Below, piece after piece: positions 2,757 through 37,304 of a stretch of DNA of 64,000 nt. This stretch comes from an uncultured Clostridia bacterium (GTDB lineage Bacteria; Bacillota; Clostridia; UMGS1883). The position numbers and the translations under genes are program-made. The stretch is from positions 18,712-82,711 of the forward strand of contig CANRJP010000001.1 in assembly GCA_947630975.1 (NCBI GenBank), read 5' to 3'. Under the pieces are notes generated by a model, which did no database searches, had not been told where the DNA came from, and saw only the letters and a list, made by a program, of their open reading frames with translations. The first letter of the stretch is position 1. Every line of letters begins with the position of its first letter.

Positions 2757-5700
2757 TCACGCCAGCCTCGGGGCCGGACGCTTCCGGCTCATGCTGTCAA
2801 ACTCGTCCGCTATCGCCTCTTTCACCCATTCCTTGACCCTGCGGGCCAAATCCCGATCGCTTGAGCTTCCGCCGTTGATCGTGAGGTTGAATGTGGGCGA
2901 ATAGTTATTTGTCTCGGACGAGCTGCTGTTCACGGTGGAATAGCCGCCGCCGGACTCCGGCGTGTAGTTCTGGGAATATGGGATAGCCATCTCGCCGGCG
3001 GCTTGAGCCGTATCTCGCATTTGCGGCATGGTTTTTTCCATACCGATTATGCCGCCCTCGATGAGGAATTGGCCTTTTTCCTGCCATACCTTGGAGGGCG
3101 AGCTGATTTTTTGTACCTTGTTGAACTCCGCGTTGACTGCGGTGGCCACGCCGCGAGCCGCTGCCACGGCGGCGGCCTTTCGGGAGTTTATACCGTTGAC
3201 AAGGCCGTTTATCATGTTGGCCCCGGCGGAGGAAAGATTTACCGCGCTGACGGCGGCTATTATCTGGCTTAGTCCGTTTTGCACCGCCGACAGGCAGGCC
3301 GCCATGCCGCTTGTAACGGACGTGGTTATCTCGGTCAGCTTGGCCGTTACCGTCTGCGAGGCCGTGCCCATGGCCGTATCGAAGACCTGCGGAATCTGCC
3401 CCACGGCGGTCTGGGTCTCGGCGACAAAGCTGTTCACCGCGCCGCTCGCCGCCGCAAGTCCGCTCTGGTCTACGGTCAGGTTTACGGCCACATCCTGCGC
3501 TCCGCCCAACTCCGTAAGTCCGGCGTTGAAGCCGCTGCTGAAGTTCATGGCCGAGTTTGTGCCCACGGAAGCAAAGTCTATTCCCATATCGCCAACGTCA
3601 ACGCTGGGAATATTTAAGTCGCCAAAAGTTCCGGAAAGAGAAGATTTCAGGTCGTTGGCCGACGCCTCAACAGAACCCTTGCCATTTTCAATTCCTTTTG
3701 CTACTCCGCTCGAAATTTTTTCACCGGCGGCCTCTGCGACTCCTCCGTCCAGCGAATCCGCGAATCCGCTTAGTCCGTCCGCCGCCTTTTTGAATACGCC
3801 GCCCACTTTATCGCCTATCCAGCTAAGAGCGCTCTTTATGCCGCTGAGTATTTTTTGCAGCGGTTCACAGTTCTTTACCCAGTCCACTATGCCGCTGATA
3901 AATTCTCCTATTTTGCCGACCACCCAGCCGATTATTCGTCCGAGGGAGTCGATGATTGTGCGGAAGGTCTCGCTTTTGTTGTAAGCGATTATAAGCACGG
4001 CGACAAGAGCGACAATGCTGGCTACTATCCGTGTTATGGGGCAAAGCAGCAGGCCCGAGTTAAGCGCCCACTGCGCGGCCGTTTCTATGGCCGTAGCTGC
4101 GGCGGCCAGTTTCTGAGCCGTTACAACAGCCATTATCGAGCCCGCCACAAAACCAAGAATAGGCAAAATGCTGTCCATGTTTTTGCCGAGGAACGCGAAA
4201 ACGCCCGAGGCCAGATTTAGCAGACCGCCGATCAGCGGCCCGGCGGCGGATATTATACCGCCGACAAAATCTCTGACGCCCGAGGCGAAGCCGACTATAC
4301 CGTCAAGAACGTTCTCAGCGGCATTTTGAATTGACGAAAACATTCCCTCCGGCATGGGCTGGCCCACTATCATTTCATACATTCCGCTGACAGCGGTCAT
4401 AACCACATCTTTTATCGCGGATAATAGTTCCGGCCCGTTTGCCTTGATAACGGCGGCGCCGGATTTAAACATCATAACCAGGCCGTTCGCAAAAGACTTT
4501 GCCAATGTGGGCGCAAGTTTTATCAGCGATTTGCCGAGAACAGATATTGCCATTGCCGCGAAATTCATAAAATAAGGCAAATACTTATTCAGTCCGGCTA
4601 TGCCTTTATCGGCCAAAGTTTCGACAGTATTTGCAATATCGCCAATATCCGAATCCTGGAAGCCGTCGCTCATAATATCGTTTAACGACGATAGCGTATC
4701 CGTAAACATTCCCAATAGGGAAACATATTTGCCTGAAAATACCGCGCCGATTTTTTCCTTGAGATCGCCGAACAAATTGTTCATCTGGGCCAGTTTGCCG
4801 GTAGGAGTATTGACAAAGCTTTCGGCCATTCCGCCCCAGCTTTCACCGATAATTTCCTGAATGGCGGCCACTTTTTCCATATCGGTGCCGGTTGTCAGGA
4901 TCTTTTTCTGCGCTTTAGTGACGACAAATCCCTTTTTGGTCATGGCGTCATAAGCGCCGGTGGTCATTTTAGCCAGATTTGTAGTGTAATCGACGATTTC
5001 CTGAGTGGAAAGAGCCGTTCCCCCGCTCATACCGGCGGCGTAATCGGTCACGGTTTTCATGAGGCCTTTAATCGCTTCGGGGTCGGTGAAGTAGGTCGCG
5101 GCTTCGGCGGCCGCGCCGATCATGGCCTCATCGCCGTACATGGTGACTTTTTGCAGTTCTCCGGCATAGTCTTTTATGCTGTTTATTGCCTCATCGGATA
5201 TCCCCATATTTTTAGCGGTGGTCGCCAACTGTGTTTCCATTGCCGTTTGTTCTCCCAGCACCGTCATACAGTTGTTTATCCCCGCTATTGCCGCCGCTGT
5301 GCCGCCGGTCAGGGCGCCTATGCCGACTTTTGCCGCCGTCTTTATTCCCTTGCCGAGAGCGCCGGACACCTTTTTTATCCCTGATGTCAGCTTTTCAAAT
5401 TTCTGGCTTGCCGCCTCCTTTAAAGCGACGGCCCAGTCCTTGGTTTTACTCCAGGCCTCCTTGATAGAGGAACCGACACCTTTAAATTTTTTCCCGCTGT
5501 CTTTCACTTTTTCGGAGGATTGATTTAATCCTCCCAGCTCTTCCTTGGCTTTGTCGGCTTCTTTTGCAATATTCTCAATGCCTTTTGCTGCCCCTTTTAT
5601 TCCTTCAACGCCCGCCGCGGCCTTCTTCGCCGTGTCTTTTATTTTGTCAAGGCCGCCTTCGGCTCCGGTGACAGAGGCCTTCAGCTTATCCATTTCAGCC

Positions 5701-6617: not shown

Positions 6618-7019
6618 TTATATCGCTTCCGTCACGCCGTCAAACACCATGATGGTGAACTCCAGATCCTCAGCCTCGGCGCCCTGGCTGATCTCGGGGG
6701 CCTCCTGAATGGCGCCCTGTTCGCCGCCGTGTCTCAGGCCAAGCTCCTTGTTTATGCACCATACGGGGAAGTTATCCTTCCGTCCCTCAAGGCTGAGGAG
6801 ATACCCCAGCTGAGGGCTTGTGGGCTGAACGGAGAGGGTAAGGGTGTGGATGTTGTTGTTTATCTCGCTCTTGATGATGTCGCCCTGAGCGCCCACCACA
6901 GGCTCAAAGAAGGATTCCTCCTTGGCCCAGGTTATCATGTCCTCGCCCACGCCGGTAATGTACACGCCGCCGATCATTATGGTACAGTCTTTGGCGTTAT
7001 ATCTTGTAATGCGTTCCAT
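6618..7019 (-). CDS. phage tail tube protein (XkdM-like)
   Basis: 133-aa ORF immediately downstream of the sheath gene, in PBSX-like sheath-tube-chaperone-TMP order. Confidence 0.6.
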   Translation of the reverse strand: MERITRYNAKDCTIMIGGVYITGVGEDMITWAKEESFFEPVVGAQGDIIKSEINNNIHTLTLSVQPTSPQLGYLLSLEGRKDNFPVWCINKELGLRHGGEQGAIQEAPEISQGAEAEDLEFTIMVFDGVTEAI

Positions 7020-7037
7020 AATTTTTCACCTCCGAAG

Positions 7038-8105
7038 TTATATAACGGCCTCGCCGATTATGGTTGCCTCATGGATTGCTCCGGCAAGGTCGAAGCTGAA
7101 GCTGCCGTAGGGATACTTGCGGACCAGCCGGTCGTCGGGCGAGGTCTGCTCCCTGAGTACGAAGCTGGTACTGTACGCGGGCTTACCGTCCTCGCCGACG
7201 GCGATTATACCGTTGTTCCAAGCGTCCTTGAGAGCGCCCAGGGTGGCGCTTTCCAGCATGGCGATGCCGTTGTTGTCATAGGGCACCTTGGGCGAATTGT
7301 TCAGTACCTTCTGGGAACGGTAGGCTATATTCTGGATGGTGTAGTCCAGACCGTCCACCACGTCGATATACTCGCCGCCCACGGTCTTGCCCTCGGTGGT
7401 CACAATGTCCCCGGCCTTGGTCACAAGGCTCTGCGCTCCGGCGGCGTGGATCGTCTCGATCTCGGTGTCCGACAAATCCAGCGGGGGAACTCCCTTGATG
7501 ATCATGTTCTTGTAGGTGAATCCCCCGGCCTTGAGACCGGCGGTTGCGCCCACCACAGCAGCCGCCAGATATACGCTTTCATCGGGATAGTACCAGATGT
7601 TGGTGTAGTCACAGCCCGTCAGCTTGAGGCCGTCGATGGTTGTTTTAAGGCTCTTTATCTCGCCGGAAATCTGGGCGAACAGCATCCTGTCCTTTACGGT
7701 TTCGTAGTGCTCCGCCACCGCTTTCCAAGCCTCGGTTTCAGCGCCGGGCATTACGGTCTGCCGCCAGCCGCCCATCTTTCTCAGGTCGTCGATGCCGTCG
7801 GCGGTCGGGGTCTCCTCGTAAAGACCGACGGCAAATTTCTCGGGAATGTCGTCCTGAGTGAGCATTATCTTTGCCGCCTTGTAGACCGCGCTCTCGGTCA
7901 CCGTTCCGCTCTCCCCGTCGCTCTTGACGAAGCCCGCGTCCCGCAGCTCCTCAAGGTTGCGGAACTCGCCGTAAACGAAGTCGCCCAAGGCCTCGGTGTC
8001 AAGTCCCTCGTCTCCGGTTTTGTTCCCATAAATCAGCGGGAACCAGCTCCCCGGCCTGCCCGTGGGCTTCGCCAGGTCGATTTTTACTTTTACGTCCAAT
8101 GCCAT
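7038..8105 (-). CDS. phage tail sheath protein
   Basis: 355-aa ORF preceding the tube gene. Sequence resembles contractile-tail sheath proteins (e.g. IGEAVI C-terminus). A strong antisense ORF (6729-8126 +) is an artefact. Confidence 0.65.
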   Translation of the reverse strand: MALDVKVKIDLAKPTGRPGSWFPLIYGNKTGDEGLDTEALGDFVYGEFRNLEELRDAGFVKSDGESGTVTESAVYKAAKIMLTQDDIPEKFAVGLYEETPTADGIDDLRKMGGWRQTVMPGAETEAWKAVAEHYETVKDRMLFAQISGEIKSLKTTIDGLKLTGCDYTNIWYYPDESVYLAAAVVGATAGLKAGGFTYKNMIIKGVPPLDLSDTEIETIHAAGAQSLVTKAGDIVTTEGKTVGGEYIDVVDGLDYTIQNIAYRSQKVLNNSPKVPYDNNGIAMLESATLGALKDAWNNGIIAVGEDGKPAYSTSFVLREQTSPDDRLVRKYPYGSFSFDLAGAIHEATIIGEAVI

Positions 8106-11530: not shown

Positions 11531-12169
11531 TCAGTTCCTTCTCAGGTAATAATCCAGAATGTTGTTGGCCCTGTCTCGGGCCTCCGCCCGTTTCTTTCCC
11601 AGCTGACGGGCCTTTTCCGTGCCGGGATCCTTTGTCGGCTCCGTCTGCGTTCCGCCGCCGGGTATTCTGCCTGCGCCCTTAATCGCCGCGTCAACCCTAC
11701 GGGCGGCAAGGGCCTCCACCGCCGCTTTCAGAGCGGCCACGTTGGTGTTGATGGTCTGCTCGTCCTCGCCGATGACCAGCGGCACCAGCTCGAGGACTTT
11801 GTCGTCTCCGCTGTCCAGCTCGGCGGCTTTCAGGGCCTTAAGTGCGATGAGCTGGTTTTCCCGGTCTCTGAGGGCCTTTTCCTTGTCGGCCAGCTCCTTC
11901 TGCTTTTCCTCCAGCTCCAGGCTTTTCAGCTCCGCGTCGGACAGGCTCGCCTTACGCAGCTCGTTCAGCTTCCGCTGAAGGTCGGCGTTTTTCTTGCCAT
12001 AATTGGCAAGCAGCTTGTCGGCCTTCGACTGGGCCAGCCGCTCGACGCGTTCCTCAATGCTTTCGCCCGAAGGCTCCGGGGCGGGAGGATTGGGCGCGGG
12101 GTCCGTCTGGGGCGTCGGCTCCTGTTTTGGCTCCTGTGCGGGGTCGGGATTGGGTAAAGGTTCGTTCAT
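11531..12169 (-). CDS. phage scaffolding protein
   Basis: 212 aa. Low-complexity Pro/Glu N-terminus, then long coiled-coil (ELKSLELEEKQKELADKEKALRDRENQL). Located upstream of the decoration and capsid genes. Confidence 0.6.
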   Translation of the reverse strand: MNEPLPNPDPAQEPKQEPTPQTDPAPNPPAPEPSGESIEERVERLAQSKADKLLANYGKKNADLQRKLNELRKASLSDAELKSLELEEKQKELADKEKALRDRENQLIALKALKAAELDSGDDKVLELVPLVIGEDEQTINTNVAALKAAVEALAARRVDAAIKGAGRIPGGGTQTEPTKDPGTEKARQLGKKRAEARDRANNILDYYLRRN

Positions 12170-12598
12170 GATTCATTCCTCCATGTAGAAAAAATTTCAC
12201 CCTCCGTATAGAAAGGTTAAACAAATTGAACTCCTTCCGCCAATGAGGTAAAAAACATCAAAAACACGGGCGTGTACCGGGTTTTTGATACCTCAATCGG
12301 GGTAGGAAATTTGTCCGCGGACAAATTTCCGTAAGCGAAAGCGCCCGATGCGGAAAGGGGGCACGCGGGGAAAACCGCTCGGGTTGTCCCCGCGAGAGCG
12401 CTGTCAGCGCTCCTACCTTCCGTATAGAAAGGCATAAAAAAACGCCCACCGTATAGATGAGCGTAATATGTAATTTTTTATACTAATCCATAATTAAAAT
12501 CAGACACCGAGATGGCGCGGAAAAGGCCGTCGCAAATGTCTGATTTTAGTTGGGGATTAGTATTATGGACACAGTTTAGCGACCTGTCCGGGTCGGGC

Positions 12599-12922
12599 TC
12601 ATAGGCCGGGGATTATCTCTACCACGCCGCGCATGGCGTTGTGAGCCCGTTTCATCAGGGAATTATCATTGAGGTACTCTATACCCTTCAGCGTTATTCT
12701 GGGATTGCTGACGGTCAGCACAACGCTTCCGGTCGCTCCGTACTGAAGGCCGATCCCCTGAATAAGTTCGTTCCGGCAGAGCATCTCAATTATTCTTGTC
12801 CATCTGGTCTCGCTGATTTTCAGTCTTTCGGCCGAGATTTCCGCTATGTCAAACTCCTCGATGTCCATGGCCTTTTCAAGGGTTTTGAGTATCCGGTATA
12901 TGATTTTTATATTCTCGTCCAT
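12599..12922 (-). CDS. YjcQ-like small winged-helix protein (phage-associated)
   Basis: 107 aa (MDENIKIIYRILKTLEKAMDIEEFD…). Resembles the YjcQ family found in Bacillus prophage regions. A rho-independent terminator (12969-12995) separates it from the orphan toxin gene upstream. Confidence 0.4.
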   Translation of the reverse strand: MDENIKIIYRILKTLEKAMDIEEFDIAEISAERLKISETRWTRIIEMLCRNELIQGIGLQYGATGSVVLTVSNPRITLKGIEYLNDNSLMKRAHNAMRGVVEIIPGL

Positions 12923-13128
12923 ATTTTCCTCCGTGCAAAAAGCACGCTGCTAAACGCATCAAAAAAGCACTCTCGAAGTAAGAGTGCTTAATTATAGCTA
13001 AAATGGACTTTGGCGGGCGTCGCGTCTCCCGCATCTCTCGGGTTTCCCCTGTCATGCCATCGGCGTGTGGTCGCAACGAAATTTACCACCTCAAAGTCCA
13101 TCTTTAGCTCACTTATATTATACCACAA

Positions 13129-13647
13129 TTATTTGTTTTTGTAAAGTATCTTTTTGTTATTTATATAATTTTTCCAGCGCCGTTCACTAATTTTCCATGC
13201 AGATATTATCGAATTTTTATATCCTTCCACATCTGAAGTCGTATGTAAACGTAAAATCACTTGAAATGTCAAATTTTCAGCTTTAATGCTTTTTAAAATC
13301 AATGCTGAATTTTTCTTGTCCTCAAGAATATAATCCGGCTTCTCAACCGCAAGTTTTAAGAAAGGTTCAATTATTTCAAAATGACCCGGATGGCGTTCCT
13401 CAATATGAGCTATTCGTTCCTCGGTAATGATAACTTCATCTGTAGTTATATTGTCAGCAACACACTTATACAAATCCTTGTCTATACTACCAATGAACCT
13501 CACATTTCCTCCCGCCGTTTCATCCTTAGTTGTCTTTATTATACCACTTTCCGCAGGTTTGTCAAGAGTTTTTTCATTTGCGGGCTTGTCAATGACCACT
13601 TTATCAAAATGCCGCCCCGTGGCTTTAAAAAATTCCTCATCGCTCAT
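13129..13647 (-). CDS. orphan polymorphic-toxin C-terminal cassette (uncharacterised toxin domain)
   Basis: Begins MSDEEFFKATGRHF. The full-length MuF toxin (13898-15361) has M-NDEEFFKATGRHF at its MuF/C-terminal-domain junction (residues 300-314), and the following ~158 aa are unrelated. This is the classic orphan-module architecture. Confidence 0.5.
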   Translation of the reverse strand: MSDEEFFKATGRHFDKVVIDKPANEKTLDKPAESGIIKTTKDETAGGNVRFIGSIDKDLYKCVADNITTDEVIITEERIAHIEERHPGHFEIIEPFLKLAVEKPDYILEDKKNSALILKSIKAENLTFQVILRLHTTSDVEGYKNSIISAWKISERRWKNYINNKKILYKNK

Positions 13648-13701
13648 TAGCTTTTAAAAGCACGTCCGAAAACGTGCTTTTTTATTCGGTTGGTTGGTAC
13701 A

Positions 13702-13914
13702 TTAAAAATCTGACATATCTATGGATACATTGTTTACATGTATCATGCATCCACAATTATTACACCTGAAACAATTACAATGTGATAAATCCTTGCAATA
13801 CTCCGGAGCAACAAACACTCCATCATGACATTTATTACAAGATATTTTTTCTCCCGATTGAATTTTTTTCACAATTTCGAAAATGTCTTCCGAATCGCTA
13901 AAATTTTTTTCCAT
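13702..13914 (-). CDS. Cys-rich small protein, candidate immunity protein for the MuF toxin
   Basis: 70 aa with CxxC…CxC…CxxC motifs. Its start overlaps the end of the toxin gene (translational coupling). Confidence 0.4.
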   Translation of the reverse strand: MEKNFSDSEDIFEIVKKIQSGEKISCNKCHDGVFVAPEYCKDLSHCNCFRCNNCGCMIHVNNVSIDMSDF

Positions 13915-15361
13915 TAAAATAACCGCCCTTCTTCCATTGTAGTTCAGGATATGCCGCTTTCACACGTTTTATAATAAGCTTCTTCTCGGCAACCGTCAAT
14001 TCATTTCTGCCTTCATAGTGCATTTTTTCAGCTAAAAAACAATTTACCTCCGCCCATTGACAGTAACCCATATCGTATTTATGATGTGTAATTTCATGTA
14101 CAACAGCTTGCGCTGCATTCTTCTCATTTTTCGTGTTAGAAACAAAAATTTTTATAACATCGCCTTGTTGCACACCACGATTGGTATGAGGTTGCGGCTC
14201 ATAAATAAGCTGGGGTCTTATGCCGGTCTGTTGAATGTATTCCAGCGTCTCTCGTCCAATTGGCGTTGTTTCAAGATTATCAGCTATTTTCTGAGGGGTT
14301 ATTTCAACATTTTCGTCAATATTCTCATATTGGAAAATGTCTTCGGCTCTTGCATAATTTATTATATCACTTTTCCCCGATTTGTCAATAGGGAAATGCC
14401 GCCCCGTGGCCTTAAAAAACTCCTCGTCATTCATTAGTTTGTACTGGACGAAGCAGCGGCAGTTGATGTCCTGACTTGCCACGCCGCTTTTACCGGGGCA
14501 GTCGGCCATGCTACCGTCGGAGAGAGTGAACTGCTCATCGGCCAGCACCGTCACGCCCTCCATCATTTGATGGTCGGCCTTGCCGCCCACATAGGTTTTC
14601 CAGCCGTGCTTGGTCTTGACACGGTGATTGGGCCGGACGCGCTCGTCCTTCATGGTGCGCCATATCTTCACCATCCGCAAATCCGCGCCGCTCTCTCGCA
14701 GCCCCTCGTCCAGACGGGCCGCCGAATCGTACATACCGGCCTCCCGCACTCTGTGTGTCTCGGTGCGGGCTATCCTCACGGCCTTTTTGTAATCGCCCTC
14801 CACGCGGCCGGCGATCCGCCCGGCCATGGTCTCGATGCGGTCGCCGTTGGTCAGTCCGGTCATGATGTCCCGCTTTATATCATACACCACCTGACGGCGG
14901 TTCCGTTCCAGACGGGCGTTAAGCGTCAGACCGGCAATGGGATTTTCCACCGCCTGCTTTATCACCTCCGGCGTCACCGTGGGAACGCCTTTCAGCGCCC
15001 GCTTAAGCTCCGCCGTATCAGCGGCCCGTTCCACCGCCGCCGCCGTGTCCCTGTATGCCCGCTCGTAGGTCTCCGCCGCCAGCTCGGCGATGAGCTGCTT
15101 CGCCCGTGGGCTTACGCCGTCCAGCCGCCGCTGTATCTCCTCAAGAAATCCGGCGTAGCGGTTCTCCCGCATCAGGGCCTCGAAGGTCAGACGCCCGTCG
15201 ACGGCCATGTCGGCGTATTCCGTGCCAAGGAACATCTTAAGCTCCTTTATCAGCTCACGGTACAGCCGCCTCAGCTCTTTTTCCGCGCCCTGCTCCCGGT
15301 GCTCCGCTATGCGTCTGAGCTGCACCAGCGCCCGCTGAAGCTCCTTATCGTTAACGGCCAT
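13898..15361 (-). CDS. phage head morphogenesis protein, MuF/SPP1 gp7 family, fused to a C-terminal HExxH toxin-like domain (MuF polymorphic toxin)
   Basis: Residues ~1-299 carry MuF motifs (RIARTETHRV…DERVRPNHR…NCRCF) and the gene lies directly downstream of the portal. The C-terminal 173 aa are an extra domain containing HEITHH (HExxH). Confidence 0.7.
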   Translation of the reverse strand: MAVNDKELQRALVQLRRIAEHREQGAEKELRRLYRELIKELKMFLGTEYADMAVDGRLTFEALMRENRYAGFLEEIQRRLDGVSPRAKQLIAELAAETYERAYRDTAAAVERAADTAELKRALKGVPTVTPEVIKQAVENPIAGLTLNARLERNRRQVVYDIKRDIMTGLTNGDRIETMAGRIAGRVEGDYKKAVRIARTETHRVREAGMYDSAARLDEGLRESGADLRMVKIWRTMKDERVRPNHRVKTKHGWKTYVGGKADHQMMEGVTVLADEQFTLSDGSMADCPGKSGVASQDINCRCFVQYKLMNDEEFFKATGRHFPIDKSGKSDIINYARAEDIFQYENIDENVEITPQKIADNLETTPIGRETLEYIQQTGIRPQLIYEPQPHTNRGVQQGDVIKIFVSNTKNEKNAAQAVVHEITHHKYDMGYCQWAEVNCFLAEKMHYEGRNELTVAEKKLIIKRVKAAYPELQWKKGGYFNGKKF

Positions 15362-15367
15362 AACCTA

Positions 15368-16819
15368 TCACTCCAGACTGATTTCGCCCTCTTCCTCGCC
15401 GGTCCCGTCTGTCAGGGCGGGTATTCCTTCCGTCTCGGCCTCGGCCATTTCCAGCGCGTAGTCCACGTCGTCTATTTCCGGCACGGCTATGCCCCAGGCC
15501 AGAGACTTGGGCAGGCCCGCCGCCATGAGCGCCTGAGCCGCCTGAGCGTTGCTGAGTGTGTCCATGGGGAAGTTGCGTTTGAAGTCCATGGTTATCTGCA
15601 AGGGGTCAACCGCGATTTGCTTTAAAGTCCAGAAGCCCGCCAGCAGCCGCCACATATGGGTCGCCGCGTCCATCATCTTCGCCTGGAACATTCCGCACTT
15701 GGTTTCAAGGCCGTGAAGCTTGAATTTTAACGAGACGCCGCTGGCCGTGCCGAAGGTTTCGTCGCTGAGGTCCGGCGTCTTGCTGAAGCGGTAGATGTTC
15801 CCCTCGAGCCGGTCAAGCTGGTGCTCGGCAAAGCTGTCATTCACGTCCTTTGTCAGAAAGTATATCTTCCGCTCCGAGGTGGCTCCCGTGCCGGGAATGG
15901 AAAAGGCTCCGCTTCTGCGGGCCTCGTCGAGGGTTTCGTCGTCCGGACTTAAGCCCTGGAACACCATATAGGCGTGGGCGAAGCTCTCCACGTCGTTTAT
16001 GTTGTCGCTGAGCACCTTTTCGTAGGCGTCTATCTCGCTGAGAACCTTTTCCGCGTCCCCGATGCGCTCGTTGTTGTTTTCCACCGCCTGAAGGGGACAG
16101 CCGCCGAACAAGTGCATCCGGCTTTCAATCAGCTTCAGGTCGCCGAGCCCGCCCTCGTAGACGTGGTACATCTCGCTGTCGTAAAACTCGGCGTGCCAGG
16201 TCTTTGCCCCTCCGGCCAGCTCGGTATAATAATACCTTACGGCATATTCCGGCTCGGACAGGCGGGAGCTTGACAGGCTCACCGTCTCCCATGCCGGCAC
16301 CGGCATAACCCTCGCCTCGCCCTCGGGGTCAACATAGAACAGCCGCCCCGCGTATCCGGATATGGCGGCCATCTTCGTTATCTCCATGTCCACGCCGAAC
16401 ATATTGTTTCGCGTGACGAAATCGGTCACGGCTTTTGTAGCCCTGTCCACCGCCGCCGCTCCGCCGGTGACGGCCTCCGCCTCGGCGGTTCTGCTGTAAC
16501 CGTAGGCGATGGGCTTTCCGGCGAAATATCCCGTCTTGAAATCTACTATCTCGCCGACGAAATCGGTCTTGACCTTGTTGTTGATGGGGTCCGTCTCGTG
16601 GAACCGGGGCTCCCGCCCGTCGATGGGAGAGCTGCCGTCAAGGCCCATGTAACGGTTGTACATCTCGCGGCTGTATTTGGCGTTGAGCTTGTGCTTGCGG
16701 ATGATTTTTCCCAGCAGCGCCGGGGATATGGGCCCCCGGCCAAGCTCGCCCAGCTCCGCCTTTATCTCGGCCAGCTCCGCCGAATAATCAGGATATACGT
16801 TTGTTTTGTTTCTTCCCAT
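15368..16819 (-). CDS. phage portal protein, SPP1 gp6-like
   Basis: 483 aa, located between terminase large and the MuF protein. Length and sequence are consistent with SPP1-family portals. Confidence 0.8.
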   Translation of the reverse strand: MGRNKTNVYPDYSAELAEIKAELGELGRGPISPALLGKIIRKHKLNAKYSREMYNRYMGLDGSSPIDGREPRFHETDPINNKVKTDFVGEIVDFKTGYFAGKPIAYGYSRTAEAEAVTGGAAAVDRATKAVTDFVTRNNMFGVDMEITKMAAISGYAGRLFYVDPEGEARVMPVPAWETVSLSSSRLSEPEYAVRYYYTELAGGAKTWHAEFYDSEMYHVYEGGLGDLKLIESRMHLFGGCPLQAVENNNERIGDAEKVLSEIDAYEKVLSDNINDVESFAHAYMVFQGLSPDDETLDEARRSGAFSIPGTGATSERKIYFLTKDVNDSFAEHQLDRLEGNIYRFSKTPDLSDETFGTASGVSLKFKLHGLETKCGMFQAKMMDAATHMWRLLAGFWTLKQIAVDPLQITMDFKRNFPMDTLSNAQAAQALMAAGLPKSLAWGIAVPEIDDVDYALEMAEAETEGIPALTDGTGEEEGEISLE

Positions 16820-36105: not shown

Positions 36106-36269
36106 ATATTAGCAAAATAAAAAGGAGCCCCGGTGTTGGCGCACCGAAGCTCCGAGTGGTACATGATACAAAGAGGAGGATCACATACCAGAACCATATC
36201 TATTGTATCATGTACGCTCCGTTTTGTCAATATTTTTTCAATTTTTTCAACAAAAGGAGTGTATTTTTT

Positions 36270-37304
36270 ATGGCAAATGCAAAAAAATTGCCCAGTGGGA
36301 GCTGGAGCGTGAATATCTATATCGGCAAGGACAAGAACGGTAAGCGCAAGTACAAGCGTTTTACCGGCGCCGACAAGCGCAAGGTCGAGCGGGAGGCCGC
36401 CGCCTATGCCGATGAGCACCGTGGCGAGGTCAGCACCGACACCTTCGGCTATGCGGCGCGGCAGTATATTGAAAATCGAAAAAACATTCTTTCCCCGTCA
36501 ACGATATTAAATTACAACAGGATTTACAGGAACTACCTTCAGCAGTGGGAATGTGTCGCGATTTCAGATATTGGGTCAAAGGCAATCCAACAACTGGTAA
36601 ATAACAAGGCCACGGAGCTGTCGCCCAAAACGATCCGTAATATATACGGTTTTATTACGGCGGTCATTTATTCGGTCGATCCATACGCAAGAATAAAGGT
36701 TGCTCTGCCGGCGCCGGTTAAGACATTTCGGGAACTGCCGCCGCCCAAAGATGTCATTAAGGCGGTCATTGGGACCAAGTGCGAGCTTCCGGCACTTCTC
36801 GCCCTCTGGGAAAGTCTGAGGATGTCGGAAATTCGCGGGTTAAGGTTCGGTGATCTGGCAGGCAATATCATAACCGTGCGCAACGTAAAGGTAAAGGGCG
36901 AAGATGGCGACGTCCTCAAGAGCCGTACAAAGAATTATGACAGCACTCGGCGGCTGGCTTTGCCCCAATATATAATGGACCTTATCCCGAGGGATAAGGA
37001 GCCTACTGATTTTATAGTGCCGTATAGTGCCCGCCGTATATATGGTTGGTTTCAGGACGCGCTTGACGCTGCCAGACTGCCGCACATGAGTTTCCACGAT
37101 CTCCGGCATATGTACGCGTCTATTGCGCTAAGTATCGGCATACCGGACAAATATGCGATGGAGAGCGGCGGGTGGCGAAGCCCTCATGTTTTAAAGGGAG
37201 TGTACCAAGAAACTTTCAGCGCCGAGCGCCAAGCCGCCGACGCGAAAATGAACAATCATATTTACACCTTGATAGATATTGCCCGGCGTGAAAATGCAAC
37301 ATGA
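36270..37304 (+). CDS. int: tyrosine recombinase/phage integrase
   Basis: C-terminal …LRFGDL…HDLRHMYASIALSIGIPDKYAMESGGW… contains the R…HxxR…Y catalytic signature. Start at MANAKK after RBS AAAAGGAG. Confidence 0.85.
   Translation: MANAKKLPSGSWSVNIYIGKDKNGKRKYKRFTGADKRKVEREAAAYADEHRGEVSTDTFGYAARQYIENRKNILSPSTILNYNRIYRNYLQQWECVAISDIGSKAIQQLVNNKATELSPKTIRNIYGFITAVIYSVDPYARIKVALPAPVKTFRELPPPKDVIKAVIGTKCELPALLALWESLRMSEIRGLRFGDLAGNIITVRNVKVKGEDGDVLKSRTKNYDSTRRLALPQYIMDLIPRDKEPTDFIVPYSARRIYGWFQDALDAARLPHMSFHDLRHMYASIALSIGIPDKYAMESGGWRSPHVLKGVYQETFSAERQAADAKMNNHIYTLIDIARRENAT

Follow-up and report, generated by a model that had tools for sequence, protein, structure and literature searches.

A probably displaced PBECR2 cassette and promoter-like linkers at the variable end of a MuF gene in a Clostridia prophage

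The 64,000-nt stretch of Clostridia DNA analysed here (the window) carries a prophage head gene which we read, with a probability of roughly 0.7, as part of a polymorphic effector locus of MuF type, from a temperate Clostridia phage, whose variable end holds two cassettes in tandem (Table 1). According to this reading, a PBECR2 cassette would once have formed the C-terminus of the MuF gene, and a cassette with a HExxH domain and a zinc-ribbon gene would have recombined in at the junction and its linker, displacing it. The MuF core would carry its C-terminal enzyme into the capsid and then, with the DNA, into the next host; this carriage model rests on knowledge of SPP1 gp7 and on the proposals made for MuF toxins and polyvalent proteins. 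A promoter predicted within the linker would transcribe each cassette independently of the late genes. On such a transcript from the HExxH cassette, the zinc-ribbon gene would be the first ORF in a suitable position, allowing an immunity or partner protein to be expressed in the lysogen. A free 124-aa RNase would be translated from the conserved SD and GTG of the PBECR2 cassette, and the RNA that follows would be made from its own promoter.

Table 1. Features of the MuF locus, in window coordinates.
Feature	Coordinates	Strand	Remarks
Portal gene, SPP1 gp6-like, directly upstream of MuF	15368..16819	-	PF05133, E 4.6e-73
MuF (SPP1 gp7-like) head protein with C-terminal zincin-like domain, 487 aa	13898..15361	-	
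Junction motif MNDEEFFKATGRHF	14393..14434	-	MuF residues 310-323
Promoter-like element 1, in the codons of linker IDKSGKSDII	14361..14388	-	TTGACA-16 nt-TATAAT, TG extension, 12/12
C-terminal cassette domain, predicted minimal zincin-like metallopeptidase	13901..14392	-	residues 324-487; HEITH at 14084-14098
Zinc-ribbon-like ORF, 70 aa	13702..13914	-	CxxC...HCxxxxCxxCGxxIH; start overlaps MuF stop by 17 nt
Hairpin and short T-tract closing the active cassette	13656..13691	-	common to window and L008
Displaced (orphan) cassette, whole, 710-bp segment	12947..13655	-	blastn breakpoints against L008
Orphan ORF, 172 aa	13129..13647	-	54 nt after zinc-ribbon ORF
Parts of the orphan ORF			residues 1-14, MuF core-end remnant (13606-13647); 15-48, disordered linker; 49-172, PBECR2
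Promoter-like element 2, in the codons of orphan linker LDKPAESGII	13538..13565	-	TTGACA-16 nt-TATAAT, TG extension, 12/12
Proposed nested gene, 124-aa PBECR2	13129..13513	-	SD GGGAGGA 13513-13507; in-frame GTG 13503-13501, Val49
Promoter-like element 3, overlapping the last PBECR2 codons, upstream of the RNA	13117..13145	-	TTTACA-17 nt-TATAAT, TG extension, 11/12
Skipping-rope RNA, 95 nt	13005..13099	-	Rfam RF02924, 51.7 bits (gathering 36.7)
Intrinsic terminator closing the skipping-rope RNA	12965..12989	-	10-bp stem, then T-run

The open reading frames of Table 1 are all present, on the minus strand, in the ORF list of the window. Together with Pfam matches they give the head-module order terminase, portal, MuF, scaffold and capsid, and an integrase (36156-37304) that has host genes on its far side identifies a prophage. 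An earlier note on this DNA had assigned the first 300 residues of the head protein to a MuF domain and placed a HExxH domain after it. In a profile search, Phage_Mu_F (PF04233) matches residues 161-305 above its gathering score (E 7e-12, 46.5 bits against 29.6), and head-morphogenesis families of PHROG match with E as low as 1.5e-30. The motif NCRCFVQYKL, at residues 300-309, is followed by the junction motif, and HEITHH lies beyond both at residues 422-427, where the HExxH domain had been proposed. The GC content drops from ~0.62 to ~0.38 around 14,400-14,500, which is the core/cassette junction within the 200-nt resolution of the scan. Two metagenome contigs encode a protein, P0121, that is identical to it.

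What follows the core differs from one relative to the next. Relatives with cores 45-59% identical to this one are 313-1308 aa long and end in an ADP-ribosyltransferase (ADPrib_exo_Tox), in Ntox50, PF15644, M90 or other domains, or in none, a set with the four named types and other C-termini spanning 313-814 aa. The representatives of 50%-identity clusters measure 318-1308 aa, and in just 3 of the 150 does the alignment extend as far as the HExxH region. Even L008, a prophage 95% identical to the present one, has a different C-terminal cassette between the same two boundaries. The C-terminus is therefore variable, as had been supposed, and not an integral part of gp7 orthologues. The stretch DEEFFKATGRHF, which the earlier note had taken for a recombination junction, does mark this boundary and is not an unrelated element; its description needs correction, since relatives that consist of MuF only stop within a few residues of the motif and fused relatives diverge shortly past it. 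The core closes with M-x-D-E-E-F-F-x-x-T-G-R-H-F, and judged from these alignments the motif is where MuF cores of this clade naturally end.

The domain now attached to the core is predicted to be a rare zincin-like metallopeptidase family at the edge of DUF6782, a putative metallopeptidase of Pfam. The window protein scores 27.1 bits against a threshold of 27, covering only 72 of the 241 profile positions, and for its relatives P0122 and P0214 the scores are 13.0 and 17.4 bits. HExxH, E115 and E122 are invariant in the alignment of the peptidase domain with its relatives, and the AF2 model (pLDDT 79.7) has a zincin fold with HExxH on a helix and the third ligand on the next one. The Cys-rich ORF that overlaps the MuF stop, already described as an immunity candidate, has homologues of 58-63 aa after the peptidase domain in L003/L004, L006/L007, L216 and L217/L218. 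Domain and ORF are co-inherited in five of five lineages, including two non-MuF carriers, which fits an immunity protein or a partner and does not by itself prove immunity; we therefore call the zinc-ribbon ORF a candidate immunity protein or partner/cofactor. In the HExxH cassette, no internal start in frame with the peptidase was seen.

Possibly, the HExxH domain acts not as an interbacterial or self-poisoning toxin but as an injected host-takeover or anti-defence effector, or as a processing peptidase, roles that have been proposed for polyvalent proteins, with the zinc ribbon as a cofactor encoded in trans rather than an immunity protein. The best structural neighbours of the domain are Wss1/SprT-type proteases, the protease domain of ArdC and CapP, and its viral fold matches, which are weak, are to SprT-like and polyvalent-protein peptidases. 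A zinc-ribbon cofactor would be akin to the zinc ribbon found at the C-terminus of SprT-type proteases, and the small ORF of L008 has weak matches to zinc-ribbon families including Zn_ribbon_SprT. Further, Iyer et al. 2017 (PMC5512222) predict a post-injection action on the host for enzymes fused to MuF. However, the zinc-ribbon ORF is a separate gene in all five lineages, has never been seen fused to the peptidase and occupies the canonical immunity position, and a cofactor needed only in the virion would not require a promoter upstream of the cassette. Moreover, a small ORF follows 89% of MuF toxins (PMC5576092), and the validated MuF toxins have protein immunities (PMC12226406).

The ORF downstream of this cassette, whose domain the earlier note had left unassigned, contains PBECR2 (PF18810, E 2e-9, 38.1 bits where the gathering score is 27.1), a known MuF-associated domain of the BECR-fold RNases. 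All 31 residues invariant in the subfamily are kept, including H81, H86, H135-T136 and K144-N145-S146. Aligned residues of catalytic type, with putative roles, are a His in the N-terminal helix and a Thr/Ser near the C-terminus, and the model is confident and has the BECR fold. Elsewhere the subfamily is found as the in-frame C-terminus of Phage_Mu_F or Phage_min_cap2 proteins, or solo. The ORF begins with MSDEEFFKATGRHF, and its junction motif agrees with that of the MuF protein in 12 of 14 residues, with a 17-nt exact run in the DNA, a likeness beyond chance. Its 5' remnant matches the phage's own junction in 36 of 42 nt and the L008 junction at 86% over 50 nt, the signature expected of recombination at the junction. 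By these comparisons, the 172-aa ORF is a predicted intact PBECR2 orphan that retains the last 14 codons of a MuF core.

L008 and the window form a natural before-and-after pair with breakpoints defined to the base pair. As determined from blastn breakpoints, the 710-bp orphan segment is missing from the near-isogenic L008; the hairpin that closes the active cassette is 97% identical to L008 7643-7678 over 36 nt despite the unlike cassettes; and the two phages cease to be homologous at 14360, a single nucleotide beyond the -10 hexamer of element 1. The earlier suggestion of a displaced module, and its estimate of a gap of about 50 bp between zinc-ribbon ORF and orphan (Table 1), stand up well: the segment is absent from L008, the subfamily is normally fused to MuF, and 14 core codons are kept. 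We consider it rather unlikely that the 172-aa ORF is instead an ordinary stand-alone PBECR2 gene that was inserted downstream with its RNA as a moron, its MuF codons having come from the donor. Stand-alone PBECR2 genes of 124-150 aa are certainly common, those of 124-130 aa starting at the position of the proposed nested gene; the cassette brings a promoter match, an SD and a start of its own; and no orphan of this kind was seen in the 73 other unique loci of the clade. The 5' remnant, on the other hand, matches the junctions of this phage and of L008. The rearrangement may have run either way, by insertion of the HExxH cassette upstream or of a PBECR2 fragment downstream. In both cases the segment would derive from a MuF-PBECR2 fusion, and would therefore be an orphan C-terminal module in the CDI/Rhs sense.

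A consensus scan of the window found two perfect promoter matches (12/12) and one of 11/12. The codons of the conserved DKSxxSGII linker contain a perfect sigma-70-type promoter match, in the MuF gene as well as in the orphan. Element 1 is also present at 12/12 in L008, L003 and other relatives, before unlike C-termini, although the linker match is not universal, being found in 23 of the 67 extended MuF proteins of the clade (about a third). In PBECR2 loci, a site of 10-12/12 occupies the same position in 21 of 22 unique cases, and none of 401 coding control windows reached 10/12 or more. The peptide over the site varies (VANRSNNAIIKP, VEKPAARDTMEK, LTLATIGSIIKN, IEKTLGFAIMTK, FDISDKNVIIK), while the DNA keeps TTGAnn, a spacing of 16-17 nt, TG and TAnAAT. 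We infer that at the DNA level the linker is a predicted sigma-70/sigma-A-type promoter. It seems unlikely that the hexamers arise from selection on the linker peptide, for example with D-K-S-x-x-S-G-I-I as a protease-cleavage or packaging signal, and are no working promoters. The linker motif is visible at the protein level too in many relatives, and AT-rich Ile-Ile codons readily yield TATAAT; yet the wide variation of the peptide under constant hexamers, spacing and TG, the empty controls, the SD and GTG that conservedly follow the site in PBECR2 cassettes and the homology break with L008 immediately after the -10 hexamer all argue against a by-product.

At the position homologous to the GTG of the proposed nested gene, all 23 unique sequences have an in-frame GTG or ATG with an SD of at least 4/5, whereas 79 of 847 control windows do. 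Since PBECR2 cassettes keep the promoter match, the SD and the in-frame GTG, they look like nested genes, a prediction from sequence. No SD precedes the full 172-aa ORF, which begins 8 nt after a hairpin; this hairpin, directly upstream of the orphan at 13660-13677, is followed by only four T and falls below the threshold of the terminator scan. With promoter match, SD and GTG all intact, the orphan is probably still expressed and not a silent relic. That it is a decaying relic without current function is very unlikely, for the missing SD of the long ORF, the nearby hairpin and the existence of RNA loci without PBECR2 (see below) are set against 31 intact invariant residues, a confident model, a perfect promoter match with SD and GTG, and a single observed variant, L002, whose in-frame 24-nt deletion is confined to the leader.

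Contrary to the earlier note, the orphan gene does not run directly into the terminator. A skipping-rope RNA lies between stop and terminator, matching model positions 1-80 of 80, with a fold z-score of -7.6. No protein immunity ORF follows the orphan before the terminator, and the RNA holds that position; the YjcQ-like ORF further on, once considered as a partner, proved not specific when relatives were compared. The RNA follows PBECR2 genes of this subfamily in 79 of 79 evaluable loci, on the same strand and with the PBECR2 stop ~20-30 nt upstream. Matches to it were obtained in 19 of 20 diverse loci (the 20th is truncated) and with nhmmer in 78 of 80. In the reverse test, 92 of 109 RNA loci had PBECR2; the 16% of RNAs without it suggest that a displaced PBECR2 can be lost. 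The RNA is usually single, two copies being present only in L018 and L019. Upstream of it, a promoter match of at least 10/12 occurs in 66 of 81 unique regions, with 24-27 nt separating the end of most best matches from the RNA core. The skipping-rope paper, Weinberg et al. 2017 (PMC5737381), describes an unexplained link to a nearby protein and neither riboswitch nor ribozyme activity. Tentatively, the RNA could be the cognate partner of the PBECR2 RNase, an immunity factor or antitoxin (for instance a substrate mimic) that takes the place of an immunity protein in such MuF and minor-capsid toxin cassettes. With the nested 124-aa PBECR2 it might then make up a protein-RNA toxin/antitoxin or exclusion module, expressed in the lysogen and hidden in a phage head gene, whose linker would be both promoter and recombination boundary.

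For the described class of MuF toxins, the locus offers handles on the timing of immunity, the exchange of cassettes and the immunity used with nuclease types. It resembles the polymorphic MuF toxins which Jamet et al. 2017 (PMC5576092) describe in temperate phages, a set with ~20% metallopeptidases and more than half nucleases among its C-termini, and the experimentally validated Apk2/IapK/Aph1 system (PMC12226406). As in the set of Jamet et al., an N-terminal Phage_Mu_F domain is encoded beside the portal gene in a prophage, with a variable C-terminus and a small downstream ORF. It differs in a HExxH domain of a rare family, bordering on DUF6782, that has a zinc-ribbon ORF as its dedicated candidate partner, in the promoter-like element of its pre-toxin linker, in a nuclease cassette whose immunity position holds a structured RNA instead of an ORF, and in its displaced orphan cassette. 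The word 'orphan' is absent from Jamet et al. 2017 (PMC5576092), and the cassette in the window would be the first orphan module found for the class. In the available text of Iyer et al. 2017 (PMC5512222), the PBECR domain, predicted to be a BECR-fold RNase, occurs fused to MuF or portal proteins or solo as a phage gene, and its injection with the DNA is a proposal. Here, unlike there, the domain is detached from its carrier and keeps carrier codons, and that text makes no mention of a conserved internal promoter match, of SD and GTG, or of a constant skipping-rope RNA.

As in the skipping-rope RNAs reported by Weinberg et al. (PMC5737381), the match is full-length and followed by a 3' terminator. 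Beyond the consulted part of that work, the neighbour is identified here as PBECR2, and a promoter-like element of the RNA's own overlaps the last PBECR2 codons. By tying the RNA to one particular RNase domain, the locus opens its function to direct assays of co-expression, binding and cleavage. In type III toxin-antitoxin systems such as ToxIN, a tandem-repeat RNA stands upstream of an endoribonuclease toxin gene, separated from it by a terminator. The PBECR2 cassette likewise sets an endoribonuclease-type toxin gene beside a small structured RNA and a terminator, and the two might be a pair, expressed in the lysogen, in which the RNA neutralises the protein. In contrast to type III, its RNA is downstream and usually single-copy, the toxin fold is different, and 16% of the RNAs lack PBECR2. 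Because of the place and copy number of the RNA, we do not file the cassette as a type III member; the resemblance to ToxIN is a hypothesis about the mode of action.

A close counterpart of the displaced cassette is the orphan module of cdiA-CT/cdiI and rhs-CT/rhsI loci (Poole et al. 2011, PMC3150448). The cassette too lies downstream of the main pair as a C-terminal module that keeps part of the conserved boundary stretch, here MuF codons and linker, and has no delivery domain. It departs from those modules in lacking a cognate immunity gene of its own, in having a phage head protein as carrier where theirs is a secreted CdiA or Rhs protein, and in a boundary formed by TG[KR]HF and a DKSxxSGII-type linker and not by VENN or PxxxxDPxGL. 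Main and orphan rhs genes of Salmonella have internal promoters (Starsta et al. 2020, PMC7043789). Both copies here have a promoter match in the conserved region before the toxin domain, and an internal RBS and start would give the free toxin domain. In T6SS, promoters inside effector genes serve the immunity genes (Miyata et al. 2013, PMC3857813), and a predicted promoter inside the toxin ORF would similarly allow the downstream gene to be expressed independently of the toxin operon. The mode of delivery is different, and in the MuF locus the element coincides with the linker that marks the recombination boundary. The promoter-like linker is a concrete and mutable candidate for the expression of a cassette outside the late operon, which parallels the internal promoters of Rhs and addresses the question raised by the Rhs authors about other polymorphic toxins.

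The window is a prophage: a tyrosine integrase comes after its structural and replication modules, with host genes such as those for an SLH-domain protein and an amidase beyond it. The earlier note had read its head module as a MuF (SPP1 gp7-like head protein) polymorphic toxin with a displaced orphan module. This reading is essentially right and the finding is real: the ORF coordinates and minus-strand layout agree exactly with our ORF calls (see table), and the supposed MuF domain is matched by Phage_Mu_F. Two details had to be changed. The domain of the 172-aa orphan ORF, which had been called unassigned, is matched above threshold by Pfam PBECR2 (E 2e-9), and the gene does not run directly into its terminator, as a skipping-rope RNA comes first. 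PADLOC found nothing, and NCBIfam gave no informative match. Between YjcQ and the scaffold gene there is a 430-nt non-coding stretch (12170-12598, minus strand) in which a CTATACGG-containing element occurs three times, two of the copies forming terminator-like hairpins (12464-12442 and 12217-12199); this stretch has no Rfam match at E ≤1.

Features of the MuF locus and its prophage setting
Feature	Position	Strand	Context or basis
Portal gene	15368-16819	-	ORF call; Pfam SPP1_portal, E 4.6e-73
MuF protein, 487 aa	13898-15361	-	ORF call; Phage_Mu_F at residues 161-305, E 7e-12 (Pfam)
Promoter-like element 1, perfect TTGACA-16-TATAAT + TG	14388-14361	coding strand	IDKSGKSDII codons in MuF; promoter scan
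Cys-rich ORF, 70 aa	13702-13914	-	ORF call; 17-nt overlap with MuF stop
Orphan ORF, 172 aa, N-terminus MSDEEFFKATGRHF	13129-13647	-	ORF call; 54-nt gap after 70-aa ORF
Promoter-like element 2, perfect TTGACA-16-TATAAT + TG	13565-13538	coding strand	LDKPAESGII codons in orphan; promoter scan
Proposed nested PBECR2 start	SD 13513-13507, GTG 13503	-	Window sequence
Promoter-like element 3, 11/12 + TG	13145-13117	coding strand	Last PBECR2 codons, the RNA's own; promoter scan
Skipping-rope RNA (RF02924), full length	13005-13099	-	Rfam, 51.7 bits vs 36.7
Terminator of skipping-rope RNA	12989-12965	-	Terminator scan
YjcQ	12599-12922	-	Pfam, E 1.8e-29
Scaffold gene	11531-12169	-	ORF call
Tyrosine integrase	36156-37304		Beyond structural and replication modules

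The two copies of the junction motif, at the end of the MuF core and at the start of the orphan ORF, share 12 of 14 residues, with an exact DNA run of 17 nt. Among 120 MuF relatives (core identity 45-59%), MuF-only proteins of 313-339 aa end at most a few residues from ...TG[KR]HF(P), and the sequences of longer ones (up to 814 aa) part ways soon after it, their C-termini being an ADP-ribosyltransferase, Ntox50, PF15644, M90 or PF12294 domain, or having no assigned domain. The alignment used for an exhaustive profile search (A2) retained the MuF columns (485 positions), and its best 150 matches are therefore MuF cores; representatives measured 318-1308 aa, and only 3 of these best 150 align into the HExxH region, which shows this end to be rare. 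GC content falls from ~0.62 to ~0.38 near 14,400-14,500 and stays low until ~13100, a drop that coincides with the boundary between MuF core and extension within the resolution of the 200-nt windows used. Because MuF-only relatives end, and fused ones diverge, shortly after the motif, the comparison identifies it as a real boundary followed by a polymorphic C-terminus, as the earlier note had proposed; the C-terminal domain is not a conserved part of all orthologues, since many different ones follow the same core.

Even a near-isogenic prophage (L008, MAG contig CANQRB010000005) differs from the window in this way, while remaining ~95% identical over terminase, portal, MuF core, YjcQ, scaffold and capsid. 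The alignment runs unbroken through the junction and the linker, the DKSxxSGII-type stretch between MuF core and C-terminal domain, up to window position 14360, is then lost, and comes back for 36 nt at a hairpin (13691-13656); window positions 13655-12947 are missing from L008, and the match restarts at 12946, just short of YjcQ. Since homology breaks 1 nt past the -10 hexamer of the promoter-like element in the linker, this element is also the left boundary of an exchangeable unit, with the shared hairpin as its right boundary. The 710 bp without counterpart in L008 hold the orphan ORF and its downstream part, and over the initial 50 nt they are 86% identical to the junction of L008 itself. 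Within the same boundaries L008 carries a replacement cassette (6970-7630, plus strand) encoding another C-terminal domain with an HExxxH-type motif (...AHEYYGH...), followed by another zinc-ribbon ORF of 65 aa (CxxC...CxxC). We considered this pair as a distant allele of the window's and rejected the idea, as no homology between them could be detected (hhalign probability 3%; BLASTP E 0.05). Peptidase-like MuF cargo may repeatedly be served by zinc-ribbon partners.

In the window's MuF protein, the C-terminal domain is predicted to be zincin-like from its sequence and structural model. Its match to DUF6782 ("putative metallopeptidase", MuF residues 356-428) is marginal, at 27.1 bits against a Pfam threshold of 27. 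Only a few other proteins were found to carry the same domain, namely the identical P0121, the MuF fusions P0122 and P0214 (overall identity 49% and 40%) and the short non-MuF proteins P0241 and P0242, found in head modules. Among the residues invariant in the domain are R72-G73, H99-E100-x-x-H103, Y106, G109, E115, C118 and E122, and its AF2 model (pLDDT 79.7, pTM 0.79) combines a small sheet with the HExxH helix and, after it, a helix bearing both Glu residues. The domain has no sequence relatives in the PDB, a BFVD fold search gave only weak SprT-like matches (E at least 0.011), and a word-indexed search querying just this domain returned two matches only.

A homologous ORF of 58-70 aa, with the pattern C-x2-C ... 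(H)C-x4-C-x2-C-G-x2-[IF]-H, follows or overlaps the stop of the HExxH domain in 5/5 lineages, so that domain and zinc-ribbon ORF are inherited as one unit. We did not count P0123 (545 aa) in the family; it aligns around HExxH, but its next small ORF differs from the zinc ribbon. The zinc-ribbon protein is a putative inhibitor of the peptidase, that is, an immunity protein, or else a putative helper, an SprT-like ribbon given in trans. The overlap of MuF stop and zinc-ribbon start (13898-13914, minus strand) contains an A7 run (GGAAAAAAATTTTTAG). Fusion of the two products by frameshifting or slippage at this run was rejected, the run being absent in locus L003 and the ORF of L006 being separate (+6 nt); as relatives do not conserve the run, translational coupling is the likelier explanation. 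In a further locus (L217) a portal protein fused to an Ntox50 toxin domain (3263-4837) is followed by an overlapping 61-aa ORF (4834-5019), which mirrors the MuF toxin arrangement with portal as the carrier, and on the same contig an HExxH and zinc-ribbon pair stands alone.

None of the 31 residues invariant in its PBECR2 subfamily is missing from the orphan ORF, and in its AF2 model residues 49-172 reach pLDDT >93 and residues 17-46 are disordered. Across 80 viral loci this subfamily mostly forms the C-terminal end of 480-565-aa Phage_Mu_F or Phage_min_cap2 proteins and in some cases stands solo, so that the orphan ORF, which retains the final 14 codons of a MuF core, is best explained as the detached end of a MuF-PBECR2 fusion gene. 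Orphans of this kind are rare: in the window's MuF clade, 73 other unique loci yielded no second junction motif downstream of MuF, and among 120 listed PBECR2 relatives only P0001, a 95% twin, has the motif. The only other examples come from the same prophage on two metagenome contigs, one identical (L001) and one whose leader has lost 24 nt in frame (L002). The leader of the window's orphan (13566-13605, minus strand) includes a duplication in tandem (VIDKPANE / TLDKPAES) that contains TTGACAA twice; L002 (1756-2250) lacks the 24 nt between these copies, which leaves a spacer of 19 nt between the -35 and -10 hexamers. The HExxH cassette may have come in upstream, or a PBECR2 fragment downstream.

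Both linkers of the window hold perfect promoter matches, for which the chance expectation in the region is, by a rough estimate, ~0.001. A site scoring 10-12/12 stands at the equivalent linker position in 21 of 22 unique PBECR2 loci, and 0/401 control windows of upstream coding sequence reach 10. Over this site the encoded peptide varies widely; hexamers, spacing and TG are conserved. In 23/23 unique PBECR2 sequences, against only 9% of control windows, a G-rich SD with a start codon in frame lies 30-40 nt after it; this codon is GTG in every fused form and ATG in a solo form. This internal start corresponds to the first residue of stand-alone 124-aa relatives and to the start of the folded domain in the AF2 model. 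PBECR2 cassettes thus look like nested genes. The linker site is also found in the window's MuF clade, at 10/12 or better in 23 of 67 unique extended proteins (nine of them perfect), ahead of different C-terminal domains, with no perfect site of this type in the clade's control windows. Finally, 66 of 81 unique regions upstream of skipping-rope RNAs contain a promoter-like element of at least 10/12.

The skipping-rope RNA region of the window folds far better than shuffled sequences (z -7.6). With nhmmer, the RNA was found in 78 of 80 PBECR2 loci, on the same strand and 2-30 nt past the PBECR2 stop; one of the remaining two, L028, has it according to Rfam, and the sequence of the other, L022, stops at the RNA position, giving 79/79 evaluable loci. 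In a diverse set of 20 PBECR2 loci, Rfam scores it over the gathering threshold in 19, and it occurs with every carrier type (MuF, minor capsid 2, or none). In reverse, we scanned viral contigs with the invariant core of the RNA alone, counting only matches with enough upstream sequence, and a PBECR2 domain ended ~40 nt upstream in 92 of 109. The pairing is near-constant and stands at the position expected of an immunity gene, and the two elements, like the peptidase and its zinc-ribbon ORF, are co-inherited. For PBECR2 the RNA may act as an antitoxin or RNA immunity factor, or as substrate or decoy; it may also be an unrelated sRNA that only shares the slot. In the 17 exceptions of the reverse scan, 16% of the RNAs, PBECR2 is absent from the entire locus. 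In 10 exceptions examined, the gene upstream encodes MuF, minor capsid 2 or a fragment of either, ending in an ADP-ribosyltransferase, Ntox50, DUF6883 or Tox-MPTase4/5 domain or in none assigned, and in most exceptions a small ORF comes before the RNA. They look like later stages of the window's own kind of turnover, in which a new cassette has come in and PBECR2 has been lost with the RNA kept. YjcQ was rejected as the specific partner or immunity protein, since L008 has it without PBECR2 and only 4/100 skipping-rope RNAs have it within 3 kb, so that it is not a general neighbour either.

Weinberg et al. 2017 (PMC5737381) report an unexplained link of skipping-rope RNA to a nearby-encoded protein. 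A further terminator-ended RNA from that study and likewise of function not known, DUF3800-I (RF02969, 88.7 bits vs 44.2), comes next after the HExxH and zinc-ribbon pair in L006 (6649-6765, plus strand), a MuF locus 40% identical to the window's and carrying the same pair. RNAs of this group may generally be housed in the slot that follows MuF cassettes. Two tandem skipping-rope RNAs follow a single MuF-PBECR2 gene in L018 (2971-3067, 3118-3216) and likewise in L019 (2974-3072, 3104-3200). Other Rfam motifs (GP20-b, gut-2, int-alpA) occur in the same head-module intergenic regions, in L020, L023, L026 and L028 around 3240-3435 and in L020 and L022 at 1298-1364, and tRNA genes stand upstream of some MuF-PBECR2 genes (L047, L048, L070, L091).

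We propose that the MuF core would put its C-terminal enzyme into the capsid and deliver it with the DNA, a step based on what is established for SPP1 gp7 and on two earlier proposals, for MuF toxins (PMC5576092) and for polyvalent proteins (PMC5512222). Because each cassette brings its own predicted promoter, its downstream partner could be made in the lysogen while the late genes are off: the zinc-ribbon protein from the HExxH cassette, and from the PBECR2 cassette a free putative RNase, with the skipping-rope RNA expressed from the RNA's own predicted promoter. For this reason the displaced PBECR2 cassette is probably still active, and recombination between the two junction/linker copies could fuse it to MuF again. 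The class itself, MuF polymorphic toxins and PBECR-MuF fusions, has been described; new are an orphan module with base-pair breakpoints, a promoter-like element within the pre-toxin linker together with putative nested PBECR2 genes, and the PBECR2/skipping-rope RNA pairing. The internal promoters are here sequence-level matches; the same logic has been demonstrated experimentally for rhs genes of Salmonella, main as well as orphan (PMC7043789), and for T6SS immunity genes (PMC3857813), and the 172-aa ORF is an orphan module in the same sense as those of CDI and Rhs loci.
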